From assembly GCA_048882485.1 (NCBI GenBank), contig JBHLRP010000036.1:1-32605 (forward strand): 32,605 bases of DNA, read 5' to 3'. A model generated the notes under the pieces. The model did not search any database. It saw only the letters and a program-made list of their open reading frames with translations, and had not been told where the DNA came from. Shown here piece after piece: positions 13,824 to 28,169 of the stretch. This DNA comes from Candidatus Thorarchaeota archaeon. GTDB lineage: Archaea > Asgardarchaeota > Thorarchaeia > Thorarchaeales > Thorarchaeaceae. A program made the translations under genes and the position numbers. Position 1 is the first letter of the stretch; the number at the start of each line of letters is the position of its first letter.

Positions 13824-15059
13824 ATGCAAATATTCCTCTATGAGCACATAGCAGGAGGTGGACTAGCCAGCGAGGAATTGTCGCCGAGCTTTGCTGCACA
13901 AGGATTCGCAATGCTCTGCACAATGGCCCGGAGTCTTAACCACGCTGGACACGATATTTCCTTTTGCTATGATGCTAGAATACGCGAACAATTGCTTCCC
14001 AGAGGAAATCAGAAGAAACGTGTATCAGATGAATCGAGTTGGCAAGCTGCAATAGAGGTTCTTTCAGACAATGCCGACCTAGGGCTAGTCATTGCTCCAG
14101 AGGATGATGGCATTCTAGTAGAGGTTCTTAAGTCGATCAGAGCTAGAGGATTGGATGTTGTCAATCCCGAAACTGAAACAGTCGCATTCTGCTCTGACAA
14201 AATCAATACTGCGAATCTCTTTGAGGAGCTTTCAATTCCAGTGCCGAAGATGATTTTCGGGACCATCCACGACATCCTTAACGACAGCCAGGAATTGAGA
14301 TTCCCTGTTGTAATCAAACCTGCAATTTCGTCAGGAGCGACTTGTACGTATATTGCGCGTGATACCGCTTCCCTCATGGAACTGGCTCACAAGCCTGAGA
14401 TGGAGGACCTAGTTGCATCTTTTATCCTTCAGGAATATATTGACGGAGACCAAGGAAGCGTATCGCTTCTTACAGGTAGCGGCAAGTCATCAGTTCTTTC
14501 AGTGAATCGCCAGAACGTTTCTTTGGGTACAATCGATTCAAATCCTGGATACCATGGCGGAGAATGTCCCTTTGATCATCCCGCAGCTAAGAAGGCCAAA
14601 GTCTATTCACGAAAAATAGCCGAAGCGCTGCCTGGTCTTCGAGGGTATGTAGGAATCGATTTCGTATTTCATGGGAAGGAAGCTTACCCTATGGAGATCA
14701 ACCCTCGACTTACTGTATCCTCAATTGGCCTTGAACGGACCATAGGACCCAACGGGCTAGCTGGGATAATACAGTGCAATTCAGGACCGCCTCCAAAACA
14801 GCCGAAACCTAATGGGTTCTCAGTTTTTGAGGAATACATAGATATGAAACGGATTCCTGATTCACTAAATCATATTGATGACTACGCGAGAGTCATGGTG
14901 ATCCCTGGAGTTTCAAGCCCGCCCATTCCATTAGCAAACGATAAGACAATTATCCGACCCTACGTATGCGGATGGGGTCTGACAAGAAATGAAGCGAGGG
15001 ATGACCTCAGTGTGGTGGAGAATAGCATCAACGCTCGAATTGAGGGGATTTCCGCTTGA
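13824..15059 (+). CDS. mfnD: ATP-grasp protein, tyramine-L-glutamate ligase (methanofuran biosynthesis)
   Basis: Motifs YEHIAGGG..QGFAML, IAPEDDGIL, SDK, VIKP, QEYIDG, SVSLL, LSVNRQ, YHGGECP, GYVGIDFV and EINPRLT. Genomic context with mfnF, mfnE and mfnB. Confidence 0.82.
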   Translation: MQIFLYEHIAGGGLASEELSPSFAAQGFAMLCTMARSLNHAGHDISFCYDARIREQLLPRGNQKKRVSDESSWQAAIEVLSDNADLGLVIAPEDDGILVEVLKSIRARGLDVVNPETETVAFCSDKINTANLFEELSIPVPKMIFGTIHDILNDSQELRFPVVIKPAISSGATCTYIARDTASLMELAHKPEMEDLVASFILQEYIDGDQGSVSLLTGSGKSSVLSVNRQNVSLGTIDSNPGYHGGECPFDHPAAKKAKVYSRKIAEALPGLRGYVGIDFVFHGKEAYPMEINPRLTVSSIGLERTIGPNGLAGIIQCNSGPPPKQPKPNGFSVFEEYIDMKRIPDSLNHIDDYARVMVIPGVSSPPIPLANDKTIIRPYVCGWGLTRNEARDDLSVVENSINARIEGISA

Positions 15060-16108
15060 GAGTAGTTGGACTGGACATTGGAGGAGCAAACCTCAAGGGC
15101 TGTGGTCTCACACTTGATAACGATGGAGTTCCTGGTGACCTTGTCTTTCGCTCGAAGAGCTTTCCAATCTGGCAGCGTGAAAGAATTGATCTATGGAATC
15201 TGATTGCAGACACTGTCTATGAATTGGCTGATGCATCCGAAACACCTGAGCTCGTATCGGTAGTCATGACTGCGGAACTCTCCGATACATTTGAAACCAA
15301 GAGAGAGGGAGTTACTGCCATTGCAGAGGGAGTCCATCGGACCCTTAGAAACATCCCGATCATATTTCCTGACGTTGGCCTCGAGCTCCTTGAGCTTCAG
15401 GAAGTCTTGAACGACCCTCTACGAGTGGCTGCGGCTAACTGGCCAGTTCTTGCATGGGCTGTAGGGCGTGGAGTTCCTAATTGCATTCTCATCGATGTCG
15501 GATCCACGACTACCGACATAATTCCGATTAGAGATGGTCTTCCTCTTACACGCGGCCGAAACGATACCAATCGCTTGATGAGTGGTGAATTAGTATATAC
15601 AGGAGCTCTAAGGACAAACCTCTCAGCAATACTGCGTGAGGTTGAGCTTGATGGTGTGACCTGCCGTGTTTCCTCAGAATACTTCGCTGCAAGTGCTGAT
15701 GTTCATCTAGTACTCGGCCATATTACTGAGGATCAATACTCCACTGACACAGCTGACGGACGCGGAAAATCTGTAGAAGAATGTAAAGCTCGTTTAGCTA
15801 GGATTGTGTGCGGAGATATTGAAACAGTACCTGAGGATCAGATTGTCGATATCGCGCGACAAGCTTGGACTCGGCAGCTAAAAGACATTGCTAGCGGAGT
15901 CCTTCAGGTCTGTGCTATGCACAATCTTGAGCTCGAAGAGCAGATTTTTGTTTTCTCAGGCGTGGGTGCAGTGTTTCTAGGTCGTAGTGCCTTGGCGTCT
16001 TTTGATATAAAGGAGGGCAGGTACCTCCAAGACATTCTGGGACCGGAAGGTGCTGGCTCTGCAACAGCCTTTGCTGCAGCCCTCTATGCAGCTAGGAATT
16101 GGAAGTGA
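15056..16108 (+). CDS. mfnF: Hydantoinase/oxoprolinase-like furan-tyramine coupling enzyme (methanofuran biosynthesis)
   Basis: Motifs GLDIGGANLK, MTAELSDTF, VAAANW, DVGSTTTDIIP, GELVYTGALRT, SEYFA, TADGRGKS and RLARIVCGD. The TTG start overlaps the mfnD stop. Confidence 0.9.
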   Translation: MRVVGLDIGGANLKGCGLTLDNDGVPGDLVFRSKSFPIWQRERIDLWNLIADTVYELADASETPELVSVVMTAELSDTFETKREGVTAIAEGVHRTLRNIPIIFPDVGLELLELQEVLNDPLRVAAANWPVLAWAVGRGVPNCILIDVGSTTTDIIPIRDGLPLTRGRNDTNRLMSGELVYTGALRTNLSAILREVELDGVTCRVSSEYFAASADVHLVLGHITEDQYSTDTADGRGKSVEECKARLARIVCGDIETVPEDQIVDIARQAWTRQLKDIASGVLQVCAMHNLELEEQIFVFSGVGAVFLGRSALASFDIKEGRYLQDILGPEGAGSATAFAAALYAARNWK

Positions 16109-16113
16109 TTCCT

Positions 16114-16749
16114 TTGAAAGTGGTCATCAAAGTGGGGGGAAGCTTGATGAATTACCCATATTGGCTAAGAGAGATTCTAAAAGTCATCTCCGTTTCTAGT
16201 CAAACACACAATTTGCTTATCGTGCCTGGGGGTGGAGCTTTTGCCGACTTGATTAGAGACTTTCATACGCGGAAGTATCTCTCTGACTCAGCTGCTCACT
16301 GGCTGGCGATAAGATGCATGGATCTCACTGGCTTCATTATGGCTGATATGAATTCTTCAATGAATCTCTATTCTGAGAAAGATGCCTTGGAGAGATGGGC
16401 AGAAGGAAAGAGTTTCATAATTCAGCCATATGAACTCCTCAAATCCCATGATCGATTGCCACACAGTTGGGATGTCACTAGTGATTCAATAGCATATTGG
16501 ATAGGAATAAGGGGCGATGCCGATGTTGTCATCTTCATAAAGAGTATCAATCCTTATGCTAAGTGGCTGTCTGTACTTCAATCAGAAACGGAACCTGTGA
16601 GGCCTGAGAGTTTTGAACATCTACTCAAAAAAGAGATCATTGATCCCTACATGGCACAACTTCAATCCAAATTCCAGGGCTATTTCTATGTCTTGAATGG
16701 CCTCTGGCCAGAGAATATCTCAACGATTCTTGATGTGCCAGTACAATAG
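16114..16749 (+). CDS. mfnE: Amino-acid-kinase family 5-(aminomethyl)-3-furanmethanol phosphate kinase
   Basis: Motifs VIKVGGSL, VPGGGAFADLIR, AHWLAI and LPHSWDVTSDSIA. The likely start is TTG at 16114 after GGAAGTGA; the ORF track start is 16099. Confidence 0.88.
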   Translation: MKVVIKVGGSLMNYPYWLREILKVISVSSQTHNLLIVPGGGAFADLIRDFHTRKYLSDSAAHWLAIRCMDLTGFIMADMNSSMNLYSEKDALERWAEGKSFIIQPYELLKSHDRLPHSWDVTSDSIAYWIGIRGDADVVIFIKSINPYAKWLSVLQSETEPVRPESFEHLLKKEIIDPYMAQLQSKFQGYFYVLNGLWPENISTILDVPVQ

Positions 16750-16750
16750 A

Positions 16751-17467
16751 CTATGCATCTTTCAGAATTGACTTGAGTTCTTTGACTAGATCTGCGTCCA
16801 CTCTGCCGCCTGTTCTATCTCCTCCTGGCAAGGCGGCTGTTCTAACACCTACGATGTCAGGATTAAGTCCCGCTGCAGTCTTGAAAGATTCCCCTACTAA
16901 TGATCCAGCTAGTGCTACTTCAAGACCATTCTCTCTAGCTTTTTCAATATAGGTGACAACCTCGTCCTCTGGCATGAAGATGAAGAGGTCTCTTCCATCC
17001 TTTATTGCAGTGTCGACCATTACAGTTTCTACGCCGGCAGAATGAGCGATATCAGGAAGCAGCAACGGATTTAGAGTTCCAGCACGCAGATGATCTCCAT
17101 AAAGCGCAGCAACTGCCTTGCTCCTGCAGTCAAAGTCCCGAAGTGTATCAATGACAGTTGTCAAAATGTAGACTGCGTCCTCCTCCTTTGACACACCATG
17201 AAGCCCGATTTTCACATAGTCTGCACCTGCTTGTGCAGCACCCAAGGCAGCCTGTGCAATTGTGCCTGGGAGATTCGGAACATCGCCGAGAGCTGCACTT
17301 ACAGGAATTGTCTTCTTTACAACCTCCCTGATTTTGCGGATCATTGCTGGAGATGCTGCTCCAAGCGACCCTTCAACCGGGTTCTTGACATCAATAATGT
17401 CCGCCCCTCCCTTTACTGCCTCCAGAGCGTCCAGCTCATCTGTTGGACTCACGAGAAGCTTTGCCAT
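16751..17467 (-). CDS. mfnB: (5-formylfuran-3-yl)methyl phosphate synthase (DUF556)
   Basis: Motifs KLLVSP, GGADIIDVKNPVEGSLGA, VSAALGD, DYVKIGL, MVDTAIKDG, ALAGSL and DIVGVR. The start is ATG at 17467, with GTG at 17485 as an alternative. Confidence 0.93.
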   Translation of the reverse strand: MAKLLVSPTDELDALEAVKGGADIIDVKNPVEGSLGAASPAMIRKIREVVKKTIPVSAALGDVPNLPGTIAQAALGAAQAGADYVKIGLHGVSKEEDAVYILTTVIDTLRDFDCRSKAVAALYGDHLRAGTLNPLLLPDIAHSAGVETVMVDTAIKDGRDLFIFMPEDEVVTYIEKARENGLEVALAGSLVGESFKTAAGLNPDIVGVRTAALPGGDRTGGRVDADLVKELKSILKDA

Positions 17468-17516
17468 ATTGGACACAGTATACACATCTGGAAACGCTAC
17501 TAATGACTGCTCCGAT

Positions 17517-17746: not shown

Positions 17747-19720
17747 TCAAAGCAAACCCACAAGCCATTGCACAATTCTTAGACTGAGTCGGTCGTTGGA
17801 TGTTGAGGAGTAGTCTCCATTGATGCCCCAGTTGTCAATGAAATAGTTCGTGCCTGTTACGACAAGTCTTCCACCGCCTGCATCTTCTAACACACTCAGC
17901 AGAACATTGCCGCCATATCTCCCAAGAGTCGTTGCACCTGGAGGTTCAATGACAGCTGCCCCAAGATAGTCGAAGCTCCCAACACCTAATGTGATTGTAT
18001 GAGCAGTCACCTGAGTTGCCTCGACTGGATTATTCCCATCAGAAACAAGGGTGGAGCTGAGAGAGTATCCTGTCCAATCAATGAAGTCATCGAGCTTCGC
18101 AACATCCAATGATGCATTTGATAGTCCAGTGACAAAGAGCCCTCCACCCGAGTCATAATAGTCTTGGTAAGCCTGTTTGGTTTCTTGAGCAAATGGCATT
18201 GAGAATGTCACAGAGTCTAATGGGTCAGTTTCGTTGTCGTCCCAGACAAATGGATCAAGAAGAACAACCGCGTCAAACAACTGCAAATAGGACAGGTCAG
18301 TTTCAGACTCATCTCTAATCTCGGTGACGGAGATGTCATTCTGTGTGAGAACCCTATAGAAGTCCCTAAACTGCCCATACGTTGTATCCATCCACCAAGT
18401 TGTGAAGCTGATGTCAAAGGCAACACGAGCAGCGGCAACAGAAGCTCCAAACTGAACATCGAGAGTCGTGCTTCCAAAGTCATCTGAACTGAACTCGATT
18501 GTTGCCTGATAGCTTGATAGCCCTGAGTCTGGCACATAGATGTTTAGTGGAACAGCGCCAGTCTGATTAATGGTCACCTGCCCGGGCATTTCGAAGACAC
18601 CAAGAGCATTTGCAGTGACATCTATGTCAAAGGTTGTATAGCCGGCAGTGAGCAGCTTTATGTCGAATGTGTAATTGTCTCCATAGAACAACCTTTCGAA
18701 GTCAAGGGGGAGTGTCCTTGGATGGGCATATGAGATTGCAGGAAGACCCCCCTCCACAAGTGTCGATAACATGAGGGATTTCGAGGTCTCGAGATTCAAT
18801 TCTCCGGCACCCACAACGTATTCCGGGTGCTCAAGAGAATCAGCTCCTTTCAGCAAAGCGGTCATGATGGCACCTGGCGTATATGTGACGTTATTCCTAA
18901 TACTGTAGGCCATAAGCTCCGCCGCTGCTGCAGCAACTCTTGGTGTTGCGAAACTAGTGCCAAAATATCGTGAATTGCCAACATCAAAGTATCCTGGAGC
19001 GCATAGGTCTGGTTTCATATATCTCTCCGATGTAGGTCCATAACTTGTGTAATCTGCAGGTTCCCCAAAGATATCTAGTCCACCTACAGAGAGGGCGTGT
19101 TCAAATACCCCTGGAGTATTGATTGTATTGCCGGCAAGTCCATTGTCTCCTTCGTTTCCAGCAGCCGCCACAACGACGACCCCTCGAATAAACGCATACT
19201 CAACAGCCTGTTCAATTGGGTCGCCAACCACGGGTGTTGCACCTAAACTTAGATTGATGACACTGGCATTCTGGTCCACTGCCCAGTATATCGCTGCAAT
19301 GACTCCTGCAGTAGTGGCTATTCCTGTGCTAGCGAGGACTTTTGCGTTGAGTATTATCGCATTTGCGCTATTGGCAGCAACTGCTTTGGCCACAATGGTT
19401 CCATGTTGAGTCCCATCAGGTCTAGAATCGCTAACATCGGTTTCGGCCAAGGGGTATCCATGTTGAGGCAATACAAAGCTCTGTTCAGCCCCCATTCTCC
19501 CTTCGATTGTAAAGTCACTATCAATTCCGGAGTCGATCACTGCCACCTTGATAGGCTCTTGTGGACCAGGGAATAAATCACCGATGGGTAGAAGAAGGAA
19601 GAGCCCTCCTGACGCAACAAGCATAACGATAATCATGACTGCTATTATTCTGAGACTGCTAGATTTCTTCTCAGGTCGTGGTTCATAGTAGGGATAGGGG
19701 GAATCGATGTATTCAAACAT
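17747..19720 (-). CDS. Membrane-anchored S8 subtilisin-family serine protease with C-terminal beta-rich and alpha/beta (DUF4350/GATase-like) domains
   Basis: N-terminal TM helix; catalytic triad motifs VAVIDSG, QHGTIVA and GTSFATP; oxyanion AAAGNEG; MKPDLCAPG. The likely start is ATG at 19720 with GGTG upstream. Confidence 0.9.
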   Translation of the reverse strand: MFEYIDSPYPYYEPRPEKKSSSLRIIAVMIIVMLVASGGLFLLLPIGDLFPGPQEPIKVAVIDSGIDSDFTIEGRMGAEQSFVLPQHGYPLAETDVSDSRPDGTQHGTIVAKAVAANSANAIILNAKVLASTGIATTAGVIAAIYWAVDQNASVINLSLGATPVVGDPIEQAVEYAFIRGVVVVAAAGNEGDNGLAGNTINTPGVFEHALSVGGLDIFGEPADYTSYGPTSERYMKPDLCAPGYFDVGNSRYFGTSFATPRVAAAAAELMAYSIRNNVTYTPGAIMTALLKGADSLEHPEYVVGAGELNLETSKSLMLSTLVEGGLPAISYAHPRTLPLDFERLFYGDNYTFDIKLLTAGYTTFDIDVTANALGVFEMPGQVTINQTGAVPLNIYVPDSGLSSYQATIEFSSDDFGSTTLDVQFGASVAAARVAFDISFTTWWMDTTYGQFRDFYRVLTQNDISVTEIRDESETDLSYLQLFDAVVLLDPFVWDDNETDPLDSVTFSMPFAQETKQAYQDYYDSGGGLFVTGLSNASLDVAKLDDFIDWTGYSLSSTLVSDGNNPVEATQVTAHTITLGVGSFDYLGAAVIEPPGATTLGRYGGNVLLSVLEDAGGGRLVVTGTNYFIDNWGINGDYSSTSNDRLSLRIVQWLVGLL

Positions 19721-19840
19721 AGCGTGCACCAGCGCCGTCTGTTTCGACTCGGATTCTTTAATAGATGAACCTATCGACAACGGTATTATTGCATCAGAAC
19801 TCTGGAAATGCCCTGAAATCATTCAATGGGGCTATGTGTT

Positions 19841-19937: not shown

Positions 19938-22886
19938 ATGACCGCGGACACTGCCCAAGAGACTGCTGTTCAACCACGCAATCTCTATCACTCCCTGCCT
20001 CTTCCTGCTGTCTTGGAGGAGCTTGATGTAGATCCAAATAGCGGTCTAAGTAAGAGTGCGGTCAAGTCCCGAAAGGACAAATATGGCTCCAACGAGATTC
20101 CTAAAATCCGCGGCTCGTTTTGGCAGGTCTATCTTGCTCCGATTCTGAACTGGCTAATTGTCATCTACATAATCAGCTCAGTTGCACTGATTCTTCTAGC
20201 CTATCTATTTCCATCGCCAGACAACCAACTTGGCCAAGCTCTGGTGTGGCTTGGTATTGTGATTGTAAATTCCCTTGTTGCCATCTTTCAGCAATACCGC
20301 GCGCAGAAAAAGTTGGAGGCATTGGAGAAATTATCACTTGGTGAGGCACGGGTATTACGCGACGGCTCAGAGATGAACATCACACCTACTGAGATAGTTC
20401 CTGGCGACATCATCATTCTGGAACAGGGTGACAAAATTCCAGCTGATGCTAGAATTCTGCAATGCTCTAATCTCACCACAAACGAAGCGTCTCTTACTGG
20501 TGAAAGCGTGCCAGTGATGAAGAGTCCAAGCGCTGAAGCAGCAGAAGATGCCCCATTGACAGACATGCACAACATGGTGTTCTTTGGGACATTCGTTGCG
20601 ACTGGATCTGCAAAGGTCGTGACCACTACGACTGGTGGTGGAACCGAGATTGGGAAGATTCAAGGTACTTTAGGTGAATTGAACACAGGAGATATTCCAC
20701 TGCGAAAGAAGGTCAATCTTCTTGCAAAGTATCTTGGAATCGCAGCTATTATTTTGATGGCAACTTCCGTGCTCTGGCAGCTCTTCATCCAGCCATTGAT
20801 CTTGGGCGAGGAGATTCCTATTTTCATTGTCCCTGGCTTCCAAGAAATCATGGAGATTATCGCGAGTAGGATCACTGCAGGGATAACTCGCGCAATGACT
20901 ATCATGCCCATCAACATACCTCTCCTGACCACCATTGTTCTCCTGACAGGTGTTCTTGCCATGGCACGGAAGGGGGTAATAATCAGAGACCTCTCTGCCG
21001 TGGAAAGCTTGGGTCGAGTGAGCGTGATTTGCTCAGACAAGACTGGTACACTCACAAGAAATCAGATGGTTGTGAAGTATTGTTGGGATACCGAATTCCT
21101 CTATACTGTCACAGGTGATGGCTACAATCCAGAGGGTGAGATTTACAAGCTAGGTGATCCTACCAGCAACAGTGGTGAACAGTCGCTTGTTTCTGATGTT
21201 GCGGCATGGCCTCATTTGCTCGACCTCATCACATGCGGTGGCATCAACAATGATGCAGAGATCGCTTTGAAAGAGATTCCCGATCAGGGAACTGTCTGGG
21301 AGCCTCTAGGAGATCCCACTGATGCAGCATTGCTGACATTGTTTAGAAAGAGTGGGGTGGATGAGCAGCTTATTCGAGAGCGCTACAAGGTGATCGAGGA
21401 GTTTCCGTTTGAGTCCGAGCTTAAGAGGATGTCCCGAATTTGTCAGGATGGCACAAAATTCGTTTCCTATGCAAAGGGTGCGACCGAAGTCCTACTCTCT
21501 AGATGTACTACCATCGGGAATGGCAAGAAGTTGGCAACATTCACACCTGAAGCGCAGCAGAGAGTGAAACAATTAGTCGATGGTTACGCGGCAAGAGGTT
21601 ACAGGGTCATATCCCTTGCTAAAAAGAGACTGGATGCATTACCTCCAGAGAAGGACGCTCGAGATGTGGCAGAGAGCGACCTAACATACCTCGGTTTTGC
21701 GTGCATAGTCGATCCTCCGAGAGATGGTGTAAAGCATGCGGTAGAGGAATGTCACAGCGCAGGTATCAACGTGGTTATGATAACCGGCGACTCTGCAGCG
21801 ACGGCAAAGACCATTGCGGAGGATCTCGGCATCTATGGACAAAACTCTCTTGTTATCGAGGGGCAAGATGTCTATGATGTCAAGGATGATGACTTCCCGC
21901 GTGTCAATGTATTTGCCCGCGTAAATCCTGAGCACAAACAGATCATTGTAGAACGTTACCAGGATCAAAAGCGTGTCGTTGCTATGACCGGGGATGGTGT
22001 CAATGACTCACTCGCTCTAGCAATGAGTGACGCTGGCATTGCGATGGGGATTACGGGTACTGACGTGGCGAAAGAGGCTGCAGATTTAGTGATAACTGAT
22101 GACAGCTTTGCTTCGATAGTCACAGGAGTCCATGAGGGAAGGGGTCTCTTCCAGAAGATCAGAATGATGATCTACTTCTACATAGCCATCAACCTGTTCG
22201 AGAGCGTCCTCTTCTTTGGTGCTCTCTTTATTCTACCCGCCGCCATTATCATGCTTACCACATGGCAGAGCCTCTACTTGGTTGTGACCACGCATTCGTT
22301 CCCAGGACTAGCTTTGGTATTCGACAAGACCTCACCTAGAGCTATGGAAGAGAAACCAAGAGATAGCGAAGAAATCATTCCAAGGCCTCTGGCAAGGTTC
22401 ATGGCGTTTAATGTTGTCTTGATGGTGTTTGGAGCCGCTATGGTCTATATGCTCACTCTCACTGGCTGGTGGGGTATCATCTCCGTGGTTCCTGAGAATC
22501 TAACCGGGTATTATGGATCCACAGGGTTTACCGCTGGATTGCCCCTAGAAGCAGCTAAAGCTGCAGTCATGATGCTCTCGGTGATTCTTCTTGTTGAGAG
22601 CACAATTGTACTTAGCATTCGCAGAATCAACATGGGGATAGGCAAGAGTCTGCGAGAGCCGGGGACCTATCGGTATGCAATCTTCCTAGGGCTTATTTAC
22701 CTAGCCCATTATTTGCTGATGTATGTCCCATTGGCTCAAGAGATCCTCTCACCATTTGGCCTAAACTTCTACTTCATGCCACTCACAGTCATTGACTGGC
22801 TGATTGTTCTCCTGTTTTCACTTCCAGCAATCGCTGGGGTTGAGCTCTACAAGCGTCGGTTGAGAAAGAAAGGCATCAATCTCTGA
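19938..22886 (+). CDS. P-type ATPase, P2-like scaffold with a non-canonical transport site
   Basis: Motifs PGDII, PADAR, LTGES, CSDKTGTLT, KGATE, DPPR, MITGD and MTGDGVND, with about 10 TM segments. The M4 motif is PINIP instead of PEGLP. Confidence 0.95.
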   Translation: MTADTAQETAVQPRNLYHSLPLPAVLEELDVDPNSGLSKSAVKSRKDKYGSNEIPKIRGSFWQVYLAPILNWLIVIYIISSVALILLAYLFPSPDNQLGQALVWLGIVIVNSLVAIFQQYRAQKKLEALEKLSLGEARVLRDGSEMNITPTEIVPGDIIILEQGDKIPADARILQCSNLTTNEASLTGESVPVMKSPSAEAAEDAPLTDMHNMVFFGTFVATGSAKVVTTTTGGGTEIGKIQGTLGELNTGDIPLRKKVNLLAKYLGIAAIILMATSVLWQLFIQPLILGEEIPIFIVPGFQEIMEIIASRITAGITRAMTIMPINIPLLTTIVLLTGVLAMARKGVIIRDLSAVESLGRVSVICSDKTGTLTRNQMVVKYCWDTEFLYTVTGDGYNPEGEIYKLGDPTSNSGEQSLVSDVAAWPHLLDLITCGGINNDAEIALKEIPDQGTVWEPLGDPTDAALLTLFRKSGVDEQLIRERYKVIEEFPFESELKRMSRICQDGTKFVSYAKGATEVLLSRCTTIGNGKKLATFTPEAQQRVKQLVDGYAARGYRVISLAKKRLDALPPEKDARDVAESDLTYLGFACIVDPPRDGVKHAVEECHSAGINVVMITGDSAATAKTIAEDLGIYGQNSLVIEGQDVYDVKDDDFPRVNVFARVNPEHKQIIVERYQDQKRVVAMTGDGVNDSLALAMSDAGIAMGITGTDVAKEAADLVITDDSFASIVTGVHEGRGLFQKIRMMIYFYIAINLFESVLFFGALFILPAAIIMLTTWQSLYLVVTTHSFPGLALVFDKTSPRAMEEKPRDSEEIIPRPLARFMAFNVVLMVFGAAMVYMLTLTGWWGIISVVPENLTGYYGSTGFTAGLPLEAAKAAVMMLSVILLVESTIVLSIRRINMGIGKSLREPGTYRYAIFLGLIYLAHYLLMYVPLAQEILSPFGLNFYFMPLTVIDWLIVLLFSLPAIAGVELYKRRLRKKGINL

Positions 22887-22980
22887 GAGTTCTCGGTGTC
22901 ATCCCTGTCCGTGCATCCAGTTCATTGTACCACAGGACATATTTGGAGTGGTAAGCTTCTCACTCAGAGGAGGTTCCAAA

Positions 22981-23418
22981 ATGGGTCTCAAAGTTGTAAC
23001 GAGAAAGATGATTGATGCTCCCACAGAAGCAACAGTCCTTGTACCTGATAAGCCCGATGACTACTTTGGCATTCTTATCAAGTATGTACCGGCCCCCGTG
23101 ATCGCGGGATACAAGTTGATTGAGGAGATGTTCGTCGCTGCAGGACGAACGGGAGAGATGCCCCTTGTGTATCTATTATTCCTTATTCTTACTCCACTGG
23201 CAGTTGCTGGCATTACTAAGGAGGAAAGTCCACTAAACATGGAACATGTCAAGTCCATCAAGGTTCAGCTTGTGATGGCTACTTTGGGATTTGTTATATG
23301 GACCTTAGTGATGAGTAGGTGGATAACCTTCGACCCATTATGGGGCACTGTGTACCTTGTGCTCTTCACTGTTGGTGCTCCTGCAGTAGGCAAGGGACTT
23401 TACGAGAAGGGGCTATAG
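22981..23418 (+). CDS. Small membrane protein (about 4 TM), unknown function
   Basis: GGAGG lies upstream of the ATG at 22981. The motif DDYFGILIKYVPAPVIAGY is followed by hydrophobic helices. Confidence 0.72.
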   Translation: MGLKVVTRKMIDAPTEATVLVPDKPDDYFGILIKYVPAPVIAGYKLIEEMFVAAGRTGEMPLVYLLFLILTPLAVAGITKEESPLNMEHVKSIKVQLVMATLGFVIWTLVMSRWITFDPLWGTVYLVLFTVGAPAVGKGLYEKGL

Positions 23419-24749: not shown

Positions 24750-25742
24750 TTAGGATACATCACCCTCTCCAATGATGTATTTGTGCCCTACACTTCCTTC
24801 CACATACTCAGATGGCATTTCTGCACTCATTAAGTGACGCGCACGCCATCCAGTGCAGTGGCAGGGCACCAAGAGCTTTGGATGAATCTTCTTCATTGTC
24901 TTGACAGTTTCCAGCATTGCGTCTTTCTTGACTCCCATTGCCAGATGAAATCCACCAATCACTGCATAAACATCCGTTTTCTGTGTAAGCCGCTGAGCTT
25001 CTCGAATGATATTGATTATCCCTGCATGTGAGCATCCTGAGATTACAACAAGTCCTTTGTCTTTTACATTGGCGATAAGGCTTACATCATCCTTCACATC
25101 AGCATCATCTTGCCATTTTCTATTAATGAGCGCTTTGAGTCCTTCCATGCCTTTCTCGTAATCCGTGAGACGAGGGACTTCACCAGTTCTAAGGAGAATT
25201 CCGTTACCCATTAGAATCGGCTCTGCAGTACTGATGACCTTACCTCCTGCTTGTTCTATCTCTTCTTTGGACGGCATAGATTTGAGATCAATGATTTTGA
25301 GCCCTCCTGGACTTCTTACTTCATATCTTCTCTTCAGAAACATCCGAGGATGCACATACACTGGTACGTCTTTCTTCCCAATGTTCTCAATTGTCCAGAG
25401 AAGGCCACCAAGATGGTCGCCGTGACCGTGAGATATCACAATCGCGTCAATTTCTTTTAGCTTCAATCCCAATGCAGCAGTGTTATTTTCCATGTTTTGA
25501 GATGTTTCAGCAGTATCGTAGAGGATTGTGTAGGTCTCAGTTTCCACTTTGGCTCGTACATAGAGACTCAGACCTGCACCAGCTACTGGTAGTGGTCTGA
25601 CTACATCTTCCTCCCCCTCTTCAACCCATTTCTGGTAGCGTTGCACATCCTCCCTCTCAGGATCTGTCCAGATTGATAAGCTATTGTCTACAATGGCTAT
25701 GACTTCCAAAGAGTCAAGCTCTCGTAGGCTCATTATCAGCAT
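24750..25742 (-). CDS. MBL-fold metallo-hydrolase, DHPS-like (MJ0301-type) subfamily
   Basis: Motifs IVDN, ISHGHGDHLGGL, SGCSHAGIINI, GGFHL and PCHCTG. Confidence 0.85.
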   Translation of the reverse strand: MLIMSLRELDSLEVIAIVDNSLSIWTDPEREDVQRYQKWVEEGEEDVVRPLPVAGAGLSLYVRAKVETETYTILYDTAETSQNMENNTAALGLKLKEIDAIVISHGHGDHLGGLLWTIENIGKKDVPVYVHPRMFLKRRYEVRSPGGLKIIDLKSMPSKEEIEQAGGKVISTAEPILMGNGILLRTGEVPRLTDYEKGMEGLKALINRKWQDDADVKDDVSLIANVKDKGLVVISGCSHAGIINIIREAQRLTQKTDVYAVIGGFHLAMGVKKDAMLETVKTMKKIHPKLLVPCHCTGWRARHLMSAEMPSEYVEGSVGHKYIIGEGDVS

Positions 25743-25762
25743 CCGCCTCGGAGTAAACTTTC

Positions 25763-26185
25763 CTAAAGGACCATGTTGTCTAGACCCTTTTCTTTTAGGA
25801 CCTCAGGCCATATGGCAAATAGCGGCTTGATTTGAGAAACAAGCCCAATCGCCTTTGTGACTGGGCCGTCGATTTTCACCTGCCCCCTCGCTAGTGCAAT
25901 CGCAGTGTTCAGCTTCCCTTGCCAGAACTTATTCGTTGTTTCAGACTTGCTCCATACTTTAAGTTCTGGCTCATCCGTGGCATCCCAGAGTAGGCGGCCA
26001 ACCTTTCCATCAGGCCCTGGATTTTTGAAGTCTATTGTTGCATGCGCTTCTGGCTCTTCAATGTCAAATCTGACCGTCACTCCCTGCTTAGCCATCTTAG
26101 CCATGACCTCTTCTTCGTCTTGACATCTCGTCCAGAACTCCTCGAACACATCCTTTAGCTGCTCAATACTCTCAAAACCTGGCAT
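25763..26185 (-). CDS. SCP2 sterol-carrier (lipid-binding) domain protein
   Basis: FWQGKLNTAIALARGQVKIDGP matches the SCP2 C-terminal signature. GGTGG lies upstream. Confidence 0.82.
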   Translation of the reverse strand: MPGFESIEQLKDVFEEFWTRCQDEEEVMAKMAKQGVTVRFDIEEPEAHATIDFKNPGPDGKVGRLLWDATDEPELKVWSKSETTNKFWQGKLNTAIALARGQVKIDGPVTKAIGLVSQIKPLFAIWPEVLKEKGLDNMVL

Positions 26186-26251
26186 CTCATTACCACCTGG
26201 CTATGTGTTTCTCTGCATGGTCAGATAGAAGTCTTTTGGAAATCCGAATGA

Positions 26252-27553
26252 CTAATTGATACGAAGGTACTTCGATACCTCCCAGGGCGTTACTTCAGAT
26301 ACACCTGGGTCTCCAGTCGCCTCAACATACTCCGTCCATTCCGCAGCTCTCATTTTGACAATCGTATCAACTAGGCTTCTCCCCAAAGCATCTACAATGA
26401 CCTCATCGCATTGAAGCATCTCGAGTGCATCGCCAAGACTGCCGGGGAGGGACTTGGTCTCTGTTGCAGTCTTGTATAGATTCTCGCCTGTTGGTTCTGG
26501 AGGAGTCAGCCTTCTCTTTATTCCATCCAGCCCGGCCGCGAAAGTTGCTGCAACAGCCAAGTGGGAATTACATAATGGATCTGGACATCTAAATTCAATT
26601 CTAGCCTTCACATCAGATCCATTGTATTGTGGAACTCTAATCATGGTGGACCTGTTTCTGGGGCCCCATGCAATCTTTGTTGGTGCTTCATACCCGGGAG
26701 TTAGCCTCTTGAATGAGTTCACCGTGGGGGCAACTATCGCGGCAAGTGCTTCAGCGTGTTCAAGGAGTCCGGCTACGTAGCTTCCTGCCAAATCAGATAC
26801 CTCTCCCGACTTCCCACTGGAGAATAGGTTTGTTCCTTCATCAACGCTCCATAGACTCTGATGAAGGTGCATCCCGCTTCCATTCATACCACTGAATGGC
26901 TTTGCCATGAATGTCGCAATTGCTCCAATTTTATCAGCCATCTCTGCAATCAGAAGCCTGGCTAGCATTATGTCATCGGCTGCATTAATAGCGCTGCTGA
27001 ACCTGAGTCCTACTTCATGCTGCCCTGCAGCCACTTCATGGTGATGAGTTGTTGTAGATATGCCGATAGACCCCAGCGATTTCGCAACTCGCCTTCTAAA
27101 ATGCAAACCTCCATCAGTGGGAAGGGTTGAGAAGTAGCCGCCTCCATCCCCGGGCACTAAAGTGCCAAGCCCATTTTCCTTGACTAGGAAGAACTCGAGT
27201 TCTGAACCGACTCTCAACTCAAATCCTGCTTCTCTAGCGGAACCAGTAATTCTAGCCAGCACCCCAGATGGGTCTCTTGGGTGGGGGTCTCCGGACGCTT
27301 CGAAGACCCCGCAAACCAAGACCGCGACATCTTTTTCCCAAGGAAGGAGGACAGGACGAGATGAGCGGGGTTTCAATAGGAGATCAGAGCTATTGACCGA
27401 CGCGTATCCAGGAACTGAGGAGCCGTCGAAGTAAACGCCATTCTTCATGACGTCATCGTAGTCCTCGAATGCAATTTCGATGCTCTTTGTAGCTCCCAAG
27501 ACTGTACTGAACAACAGCCTCAGGAAGTCTGGTCGGTCGTTTGTTTCTCGCAT
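26252..27553 (-). CDS. glnA: Glutamine synthetase type I
   Basis: Motifs FDGSS, ELEFFL, HHEVAAGQHE, FMAKPFSGMNGSGMHLHQSL, KRLTPGYEAP, NRSTMIRVP and RIEFRCPD. The true start is ATG at 27553; the longer ORF is antisense to the Lrp gene. Confidence 0.92.
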   Translation of the reverse strand: MRETNDRPDFLRLLFSTVLGATKSIEIAFEDYDDVMKNGVYFDGSSVPGYASVNSSDLLLKPRSSRPVLLPWEKDVAVLVCGVFEASGDPHPRDPSGVLARITGSAREAGFELRVGSELEFFLVKENGLGTLVPGDGGGYFSTLPTDGGLHFRRRVAKSLGSIGISTTTHHHEVAAGQHEVGLRFSSAINAADDIMLARLLIAEMADKIGAIATFMAKPFSGMNGSGMHLHQSLWSVDEGTNLFSSGKSGEVSDLAGSYVAGLLEHAEALAAIVAPTVNSFKRLTPGYEAPTKIAWGPRNRSTMIRVPQYNGSDVKARIEFRCPDPLCNSHLAVAATFAAGLDGIKRRLTPPEPTGENLYKTATETKSLPGSLGDALEMLQCDEVIVDALGRSLVDTIVKMRAAEWTEYVEATGDPGVSEVTPWEVSKYLRIN

Positions 27554-27686
27554 TTTAGCTTTAGAACCAAAGCTAAGTATAAGGATTTCCGGCGAAAAAC
27601 AGAAAGTATTTCTACTATCTTCTATAAAATCCCGACTATCCGAAGAACTTGCGGAATTGATGTGCATGTTCGAAGAAGTTACGGAA
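27554..27686. promoter_or_regulatory. Divergent glnA/lrp promoter region with an 18-bp direct repeat
   Basis: TATAAAA at 27623-27629 on the plus strand; TTATA about 25 nt upstream of the glnA ATG on the minus strand; repeats at 27639-27656 and 27669-27686 (15/18 identical). Confidence 0.45.
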
Positions 27687-28169
27687 AAGATTGATGAAAC
27701 CGATGTGAAAATCCTCGAGCTTCTGCAACAAGATGGCCGGATGAGTGTGTCAGACATTTCCAAGAAAGTTGGAAAGGGGATCTCTACAGTGCATGCACGT
27801 ATTGGGAATCTAAGGAAGAGAGGAATCATTGACCAGTTCACAGCGGTCCTGAATCCTGCGAAACTTGGTCGTCCAACCTTGGCTCTCATACTCATTACTA
27901 TCCGTTATAGAGTTCCAGGAAGTAGAAAGGTCATATCCCAGCGCGAGTTCTGTGAAGAAATAGCCCAACATCCATTCGTTCAGGAGGTTCATGTTCTTAG
28001 TGGAGAGTTTGATGTACTCCTAAAGGTAAGAGCCAGGGATGTTCAGGAGATGAACAGCTTCATTGTTGACTCGCTTCGTGAGATGCCTGCAGTTGATCGA
28101 ACACTTACCATGTTCGCCATGGACACCTATCTTGATACCCTGATACTTAGAAACATCCAGAAAAGGTGA
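27666..28169 (+). CDS. Lrp/AsnC family transcriptional regulator
   Basis: HTH region IDETDVKILELLQQDGRMSVSDI and STVHARIGNL, and RAM domain EVHVLSGEFDVLLKV. The start is at 27660 or 27666. Confidence 0.93.
   Translation: MFEEVTEKIDETDVKILELLQQDGRMSVSDISKKVGKGISTVHARIGNLRKRGIIDQFTAVLNPAKLGRPTLALILITIRYRVPGSRKVISQREFCEEIAQHPFVQEVHVLSGEFDVLLKVRARDVQEMNSFIVDSLREMPAVDRTLTMFAMDTYLDTLILRNIQKR

Follow-up and report, generated by a model that had tools for sequence, protein, structure and literature searches.

A stretch of 32,605 nucleotides from a Candidatus Thorarchaeota archaeon (assembly GCA_048882485.1, contig JBHLRP010000036.1, positions 1 to 32,605; hereafter the window) carries a gene for a P-type ATPase whose membrane helices have an altered cation site. 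The gene is a single open reading frame (ORF) on the forward strand, from position 19938 to 22886, that starts with ATG and encodes 982 amino acids with 10 predicted transmembrane helices and a P2-like layout. Pfam models for Cation_ATPase_N, E1-E2_ATPase, Cation_ATPase, HAD Hydrolase and Cation_ATPase_C all match the protein, which amounts to a complete P2-type architecture. We refer to it as the PINIP pump, after the motif in its fourth transmembrane helix (M4). A first-pass annotation, made from the sequence alone, had described the catalytic machinery as intact, and every motif it listed is present in the translation: TGES in the actuator (A) domain (T187-S190, 20496-20507), the phosphorylation motif DKTGT with D367 (21036-21050), KGATE in the nucleotide-binding (N) domain (K513-E517, 21474-21488), DPPR (D592-R595, 21711-21722) and TGD (T616-D618, 21783-21791) in the phosphorylation (P) domain, and GDGVND at the hinge (G685-D690, 21990-22007), all encoded on the forward strand. 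These catalytic motifs are invariant in an alignment of 31 pump relatives at 33-77% identity, among them the residues G188 and E189 of TGES, the whole of D367, K368, T369, G370 and T371, and K513 and G514 of KGATE. The protein also passes the generic model of the P-type superfamily (HAD-IC, TIGR01494), whose cut-off is 62.3 bits, with a score of 273.5. It is accordingly predicted to be a catalytically competent P-type ATPase.

P-type ATPases are classed by the chemistry of the site formed by M4, M5 and M6, and it is here that the PINIP pump differs. M4 reads AMTIMPINIPLL; P324-I325-N326-I327-P328 (20907-20921, forward strand, like the other site segments) stands in place of PEGLP, and I325 precedes D367 by exactly 42 residues. 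M6 reads QSLYLVVTTHSFP and includes the series Q777...V782...T785-H786...P789 (22266-22304; the H786 codon is 22293-22295), in which V782 takes the place of SERCA N796 and H786 that of SERCA D800. Residues of SERCA site I persist in the remaining helices: N752-x-x-E755 in M5 (22191-22202) corresponds to N768/E771, with both the Asn and the Glu shared with PEGL pumps, and E887 in M8 (22596-22598) corresponds to E908. Two alignments agree on this register. HMMER places PINI on PEAL of the Listeria pump LMCA1 and aligns V782 with the Asn and H786 with the Asp of its NLVND, and a MAFFT alignment with 23 PEGL pumps shows Glu in 22 of 23 at column 325, Asn or Asp in all 23 at column 782, and Asp or Glu in 22 of 23 at column 786. 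The residue assignments of the first-pass annotation therefore hold, both for the M4 motif with its 42-residue spacing and for the Val and His in M6, as does its statement that the M5 pair and an M8 Glu, now placed at E887, are retained. Its claim that the canonical Ca2+ site is lost is borne out at site II, where the E309 and N796 positions hold non-ligand residues.

The same residues recur throughout a family of 49 aligned sequences. In M4, P324 is found in 49/49, N326 in 46/49 and P328 in 44/49; N326, the most conserved new residue, had gone unmentioned in the first-pass annotation. Position 325 is always hydrophobic (40 Ile, 3 Val, 3 Phe and 2 Trp) and never Glu (0/49). Conservation extends to M5 (N752 in 45/49, E755 in 49/49) and M6 (Q777 in 49/49, H786 in 48/49), and E887 of M8 is Glu in 43 members. 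Position 782 is occupied by Phe, Val or Tyr and stays hydrophobic, and position 785, equivalent to SERCA T799, is variable. The family also has Asn (N71) and Gln (Q119) at columns where PEGL pumps carry Asp and Glu, which we take to be SERCA D59 and E109, acidic residues of the cytoplasmic Ca2+ entry path or funnel. Across 60 genes compared at the DNA level, all synonymous codons are in use at the signature positions (ATC, ATT and ATA for Ile, AAT and AAC for Asn, CAC and CAT for His), which shows that selection maintains these residues and that they are no sequencing error. In this clade, then, Ca2+ site II is erased, with E309 replaced by an aliphatic residue and N796 by a hydrophobic one. 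D800, the Asp common to both Ca2+ sites, has given way to a conserved His. Site I retains N752, E755 and E887, and a new conserved Asn, N326, occupies the unwound part of M4. The conserved membrane residues of the family are accordingly two Glu, one His and two Asn, set on the positions of SERCA site I.

Wider searches gave the same picture. The 120 closest homologues (66-92% identity) come from organisms named Thorarchaeota, Promethearchaeota or Hodarchaeota; IMPINIP is present in 120/120 and the M6 motif [ST]H[ST]F in 119/120, the remaining sequence being unmatched by the search pattern. The first-pass annotation had asked whether PINI and the M6 His are conserved across Asgard genomes, and they are; it had also allowed for close homologues with PEGL, and none of the 120 has it, hence this is no private mutation. 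An exhaustive search of 1.8 billion cluster representatives returned about 40 clusters, down to 35% identity, with P-[IVLFW]-N-[ILF]-[PV] in M4, and His was also found in M6 wherever the pattern could read that helix. Below about E 1e-143 the matches turn into classical PEGL / NLVTD pumps.

A maximum-likelihood tree of 78 rows was inferred with the quick search of IQ-TREE under the single-matrix model LG+G4 and rooted on the CPC P1B pumps of the host genome; its references were PEGL, P3A and P1B sequences, and eukaryotic P2B-D, P4 and P5 were left out. The PINIP family forms a monophyletic group of 49 rows reaching down to about 33% identity, with a support of 100 in the Shimodaira-Hasegawa-like approximate likelihood ratio test (SH-aLRT). 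Its sister group is the prokaryotic PEGL pumps, with Asgard P3A pumps lying outside the clade of P2 pumps plus family. Of the phylogeny proposed in the first-pass annotation, this tree supplies the placement of the clade beside the PEGL Ca2+ pumps, on a reference set of PEGL, P3A and P1B sequences. The host genome also has two other P2-like pumps of the PEGL kind, of which one shows a canonical NLATDGFP in M6, and two CPC P1B pumps, so the PINIP pump is an additional paralogue with a role of its own.

The distribution of the family was surveyed with a family hidden Markov model (HMM), calibrated on true members, which exceed 1100 bits, and on PEGL pumps, which reach about 800-900, with more than 1000 bits as the threshold for counting. 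By hand count from the match table, about 90 of 151 sampled Asgard genomes exceed it. In the window's own taxonomic family, whose members are named Thorarchaeota, 25 of 26 genomes have the pump, and several Asgard families of small genomes are without it. Samples of three other phyla gave 2/201, in the phylum of a pump-bearing Nitrososphaeria metagenome-assembled genome (MAG), 0/201 and 0/201. Species-representative genomes were also scanned with a DNA pattern for PIN[ILMF]PLL[TS]T, filtered by reading frame and by a downstream DKTG, a filter that removed chance matches in Pseudomonas and others. At least 37 true matches remained. At least 30 of them lie in named Asgard lineages (Thor, Hermod, Hod, Heimdall, Odin and Loki/Promethearchaeota), at least 4 in MAGs labelled 'uncultured archaeon', at least 2 in Nitrososphaeria MAGs and at least 1 in an 'Aerophobetes' MAG. 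Taken with the tree, these counts describe an ancient clade, nearly specific to Asgard archaea, whose sister group is the prokaryotic PEGL (P2A-type) Ca2+ pumps.

Asgard genomes can carry 2 to 5 copies, tandem pairs included, and many Loki and Hermod genomes have a tandem pair of family genes, each of them with PIN in M4 and His in M6. Examples are locus L230 (contig G144:C9, 4998-10894), locus L095 (2730-8000) and contigs G147:C12, G141:C50, G040:C32 and G129:C86, among others. The pairs comprise two subtypes, PINIP with TLHTFP and PINLP with VVHSLP, each of which has the Asn and the His; they could differ in specificity or form a hetero-oligomer. A tandem pair scoring 1245 and 1226 bits lies on NJBP01000013.1, assigned to the bacterial MAG 'Candidatus Aerophobetes bacterium Ae_b3b'. 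The scores nearly equal those of Loki genomes, and the pair clusters with a Promethearchaeota sequence. Because a Loki-like tandem pair comes here with Loki-like scores, mis-binning of an Asgard contig is the probable explanation, rather than gene transfer. A Nitrososphaeria MAG genome has a further P-type ATPase match (G151:C19:165808-167880) that is interrupted by three in-frame TAG codons, which could reflect a pseudogene, an assembly problem or recoding.

How does the pump compare with established classes? Among curated NCBIfam models its nearest are those of P2A Ca2+ pumps, with 449 bits for PMR1 (TIGR01522) against a cut-off of 798 and 417 for SERCA (TIGR01116) against 703, followed by ENA with 413 and PMCA with 384 bits. 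Every equivalog cut-off is missed, those of the P2A models by about 40%, and the generic P-type model is the only one passed; in the same P2A-model comparison a canonical PEGL relative (P0165) reaches 726 bits. P2A pumps, including the prokaryotic Ca2+-ATPase LMCA1 (PDB 6zhf, 6zhh and 9euq), SERCA and SPCA1, nonetheless have the same domain order and 10 transmembrane helices, share TGES/DKTGT/DPPR/TGD/GDGVND, the M5 N..E pair and the M8 Glu, and provide both the best sequence matches (E 1e-114 to 1e-105) and the best fold matches. Unlike them, the PINIP pump has PINIP and not PE(G/A)LP, Val, Phe or Tyr for N796, His for D800, and neutral residues for the acids equivalent to D59 and E109. It thus carries I325, V782 and H786 at ligand positions where PEGL pumps are so nearly uniform (Glu in 22/23 at the first, Asp or Glu in 22/23 at the last).

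The predicted structure is in keeping with these matches. An AlphaFold2 model, built with 31 relatives in the alignment, has a mean predicted local distance difference test (pLDDT) score of 81.5, a predicted template-modelling (pTM) score of 0.73 and 10 transmembrane helices, with helix breaks in M4 at 323-326 and in M6 at 786-787, where P-type pumps form the transport site. Foldseek ranks SERCA E2 states first, then SPCA1, LMCA1, and Na,K- and H,K-ATPases, with template-modelling scores of 0.6-0.8 for the top matches and 0.75-0.77 for the SERCA E2 states.

P3A H+-ATPases (TIGR01647) resemble the pump in having an aliphatic residue at the E309 position within a P-x-x-x-P M4, together with TGES and GDGVND, and both would be single-site pumps; P3A, however, has an Asp in M6 where the PINIP pump has His, an Arg in M5 where it has N..E, and no M8 Glu. 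The P3A model gives it 321 bits against a cut-off of 615 and is not passed, whereas genuine Asgard P3A pumps score above 1000 bits (up to 1077) and have PVALP or PAALP in M4 with TGES and GDGVND. P3A-type pumps over the cut-off occur in 26 of the 151 genomes, some of them multicopy or in tandem (G109:C74, G083:C49). P3A and PINIP pumps coexist in several Asgard taxonomic families, and the window's own family gave no P3A match above the TIGR01647 cut-off. The likeness to P4 flippases (TIGR01652; ATP8A1/Drs2) is confined to the Ile at the E309 equivalent and the small polar residue after it. P4 ATPases have DGET in the A domain and GDGAND at the hinge; the PINIP pump differs in its TGES and GDGVND and in a charged membrane site of Glu, His and Glu. 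It scores 99 bits on the P4 model, whose cut-off is 431, within a family range of 89-148 (ordinary PEGL pumps score 86-88), and of all P-type classes P4 always gives the family its lowest score or one of its lowest. P1B heavy-metal ATPases are set apart by their CPC/SPC-type M4 motif, which the pump does not have, and the highest score among P1B models, 234 bits for TIGR01525, stays under its cut-off of 346. Within that class P1B-4 (sCoaT) has SPC/CPC in M4 and 8 transmembrane helices, as against PINIP and 10, and is remote in sequence. A 2023 field review (PMC10654040) nevertheless describes a transmembrane histidine that acts as an internal counter-ion in P1B-4 pumps, and also a P2-like pump without the TM6 Asp, the mycobacterial 'P6' protein CtpE. 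CtpE retains PEGL and has Ile, not His, in TM6, and it is remote from the PINIP pump in sequence. Both are precedents for remodelled sites. The combination of PINIP in M4 and His in M6 matches none of the compared classes (PEGL P2A, P3A, P4 and P1B), nor any curated NCBIfam equivalog.

Divergent from the ATPase gene lies a subtilase gene (Peptidase_S8 by Pfam; 17747-19822, reverse strand). The order subtilase (-), ATPase (+), panB (+) and, further along, SCP2, MBL and GlnA is found in about 14 genomes of the window's own taxonomic family. The subtilase/ATPase/panB order occurs in none of the other Asgard lineages examined, where TFIIB-like genes are the only recurring pump neighbours. Since the synteny is confined to one Asgard family it looks inherited and not like a functional module, and the subtilase is probably a syntenic neighbour by descent and not a functional partner. 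Between the ATPase gene and panB is a hydrophobic ORF of 156 amino acids (22948-23418, forward strand). Pfam does not match it, homologues are lacking both in 40 related loci and in the rest of the genome, and in a same-genus genome 61 nucleotides separate the ATPase stop from the panB start; it is probably an orphan, or no gene, and not a conserved pump subunit. A module of protease, ATPase and a protein with four transmembrane helices was considered and rejected, given this narrow conservation of the neighbours and an ORF without homologue.

Further upstream of the pump, genes for an ATP-grasp_3 protein (13824-15059), a hydantoinase_A-like protein (15056-16108) and an amino-acid-kinase-like protein (16099-16749) are followed, next to the last of these, by a gene for a 4-(hydroxymethyl)-2-furancarboxaldehyde phosphate (4-HFC-P) synthase of the MfnB family (16751-17485, reverse strand). 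This set (13824-17485) resembles methanofuran/methanopterin-type cofactor biosynthesis, and the same-genus genome has these four genes upstream as well. On the other side, a reverse-strand group at 24750-27895 encodes a metallo-beta-lactamase (MBL)-fold hydrolase, an SCP2 sterol-carrier-like protein of 140 amino acids and a glutamine synthetase; synteny of this group with the ATPase and panB extends across the window's taxonomic family. An SCP2-family lipid-binding protein is thus present in an Asgard genome.

Could the pump move a lipid? The first-pass annotation read it as an active pump with a non-standard substrate, a lipid or bulky organic cargo among the candidates, and as flippase-like, either a step towards P4 chemistry or a convergent solution. 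I325 does coincide with the gate Ile of P4 ATPases and, as there, precedes a small polar residue (PIN against PIS), Ca2+ site II is lost, and it was one family member that reached the 148 bits on the P4 model. That score is nevertheless a long way from the cut-off, and the Ile at the E309 position, which the first-pass annotation took for a P4 hallmark, is no such thing because the P3A proton pumps of Asgard genomes (PVALP/PAALP) are aliphatic there too. TGES and GDGVND are not the P4 forms, and their core residues are invariant in the family; the conserved membrane residues E755, E887 and H786 are charged; no P4 structure appears among the top 50 Foldseek matches; and the clade is sister to Ca2+ pumps. 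No P4-class gene was matched at E <= 1e-70 in the 151 Asgard genomes, a search in which prokaryotic controls were silent too, as expected. No accessory-subunit gene of the CDC50 type is conserved beside the pump, although the gene for such a partner could lie at another place in the genome. The flippase explanation is accordingly very improbable, and organic cations and lipid head groups together would claim at most a sliver of the total probability for the cargo. In all likelihood the PINIP pump is no lipid flippase and no intermediate towards P4 ATPases; the first-pass annotation had itself denied that it was a true P4. The family is without bearing on the origin of lipid flippases and gives no evidence for a prokaryotic flippase precursor. 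What survives of the earlier reading is the intact enzyme and, given a change conserved Asgard-wide, the likelihood of a substrate other than Ca2+; its lipid part does not. A protein that transports nothing, being a sensor, a regulator or a decaying pump, would account for the loss of the canonical ion ligands, yet all catalytic residues are invariant, purifying selection acts on the new site residues across a deep clade with several paralogues, and the ORFs are full-length and free of stops in dozens of genomes, so that we give this explanation hardly any credence. Transport of Ca2+ (or Mg2+), one ion per ATP, by the remaining site-I-like pocket deserves somewhat more consideration, as the best profile and structure matches are Ca2+ pumps, N752, E755 and E887 make up SERCA site I, and relatives are named 'Ca2+-transporting ATPase' in databases. 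It is still unlikely. D800, the Asp of every characterised Ca2+ site, is His in 48/49, the ligands E309 and N796 are gone, the score falls short of every Ca2+-ATPase equivalog cut-off, and the host genome already has a canonical PEGL/NLATD pump. Known single-site Ca2+ pumps (PMCA, SPCA, LMCA1), moreover, retain site II and not site I.

The explanation that best covers these observations, and probably the right one, is that the PINIP pump is an intact P-type ATPase from an Asgard sister clade of the Ca2+ pumps that moves a small cation other than Ca2+ through a single site. On the residues conserved in the membrane, the best reading would be a pump with a histidine-centred site, and its cargo is likely to be something other than Ca2+. 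The pump would run a normal E1/E2 Post-Albers cycle with one small cation per ATP. The ion would bind from the cytoplasm in a pocket of N326, N752, E755, H786 and E887, would be occluded upon phosphorylation of D367 and would be released outside in E2P; H786 could be a ligand of the cargo, or else serve in the return half-cycle as a built-in counter-ion or proton carrier. The single best guess at the cargo, a tentative one, is a divalent transition metal of the Mn2+/Fe2+/Zn2+ kind, favoured by the ligand set of His, Glu, Glu and Asn, its net charge of -2 and the metal-rich anoxic sediment habitat. Nearly tied with it is H+ or a monovalent cation, which is possible to much the same degree. According to this rival the pump moves H+, Na+, K+ or NH4+, and H786, N326 and the two Glu form a protonatable carrier or built-in counter-ion, analogous to the Asp-Asn/Arg of P3A or the Lys of the H+,K+-ATPase, that energises or pH-balances the Asgard membrane. 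In its favour are the M4 pattern P-aliphatic-x-x-P, like Asgard P3A (PVALP), and a distribution that looks like housekeeping, with about 60% of Asgard genomes, vertical synteny, several copies and tandem pairs, as well as the near-universal presence of the pump in the window's own family, where P3A matches over the cut-off are missing. The histidine counter-ion of P1B-4 (PMC10654040) gives it a precedent. Two conserved Glu and a His, however, fit a divalent metal as well, and the P3A pumps that coexist with the family in several Asgard families argue for a non-redundant function. We know of no P-type proton pump with His for the M6 Asp. The neutral N71 and Q119, which presumably replace the acids of the entry path (SERCA D59/E109), favour H+ or a monovalent ion and count against a transition metal. 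Other points also weigh against the single-site proposal or its metal version. The pocket geometry would rest on homology to SERCA site I, and the tree is a quick, single-matrix one without eukaryotic P2B-D, P4 and P5 references. All transition-metal P-type pumps known to us are P1B, and neither a metal-binding domain in the pump nor a metalloregulator nearby was found in the window and related loci.

A literature search, over texts partly available as excerpts, found no description of a PINIP/M6-His pump family. The 2023 review expects further prokaryotic P-type families (PMC10654040), and the PINIP family, a real and conserved Asgard clade of P2-like pumps, is one of them. Its rank is a separate matter. 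The clade could be a new functional class of P-type ATPase, comparable to P2A-D or 'P6' and with a cargo novel for P2-scaffold pumps, though we put this at slightly less than an even chance; the cargo may then be a transition metal (Fe2+, Mn2+ or Zn2+) or a proton carried on the His. To our knowledge, every P-type class so far has brought a new transport specificity. If the clade is such a class, the PINIP pump would be a lineage-defining housekeeping pump of Asgard archaea. The family is of interest mainly to transport biochemists and Asgard biologists. It is deep-branching and strongly conserved, frequently present in several copies per genome, and nearly restricted to the Asgard archaea, which stand closest to eukaryotes among prokaryotes. 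Identifying its cargo would add a specificity rule to the P-type superfamily, and would inform on ion or metal homeostasis, or on how membranes are energised, in the lineage from which eukaryotes arose.

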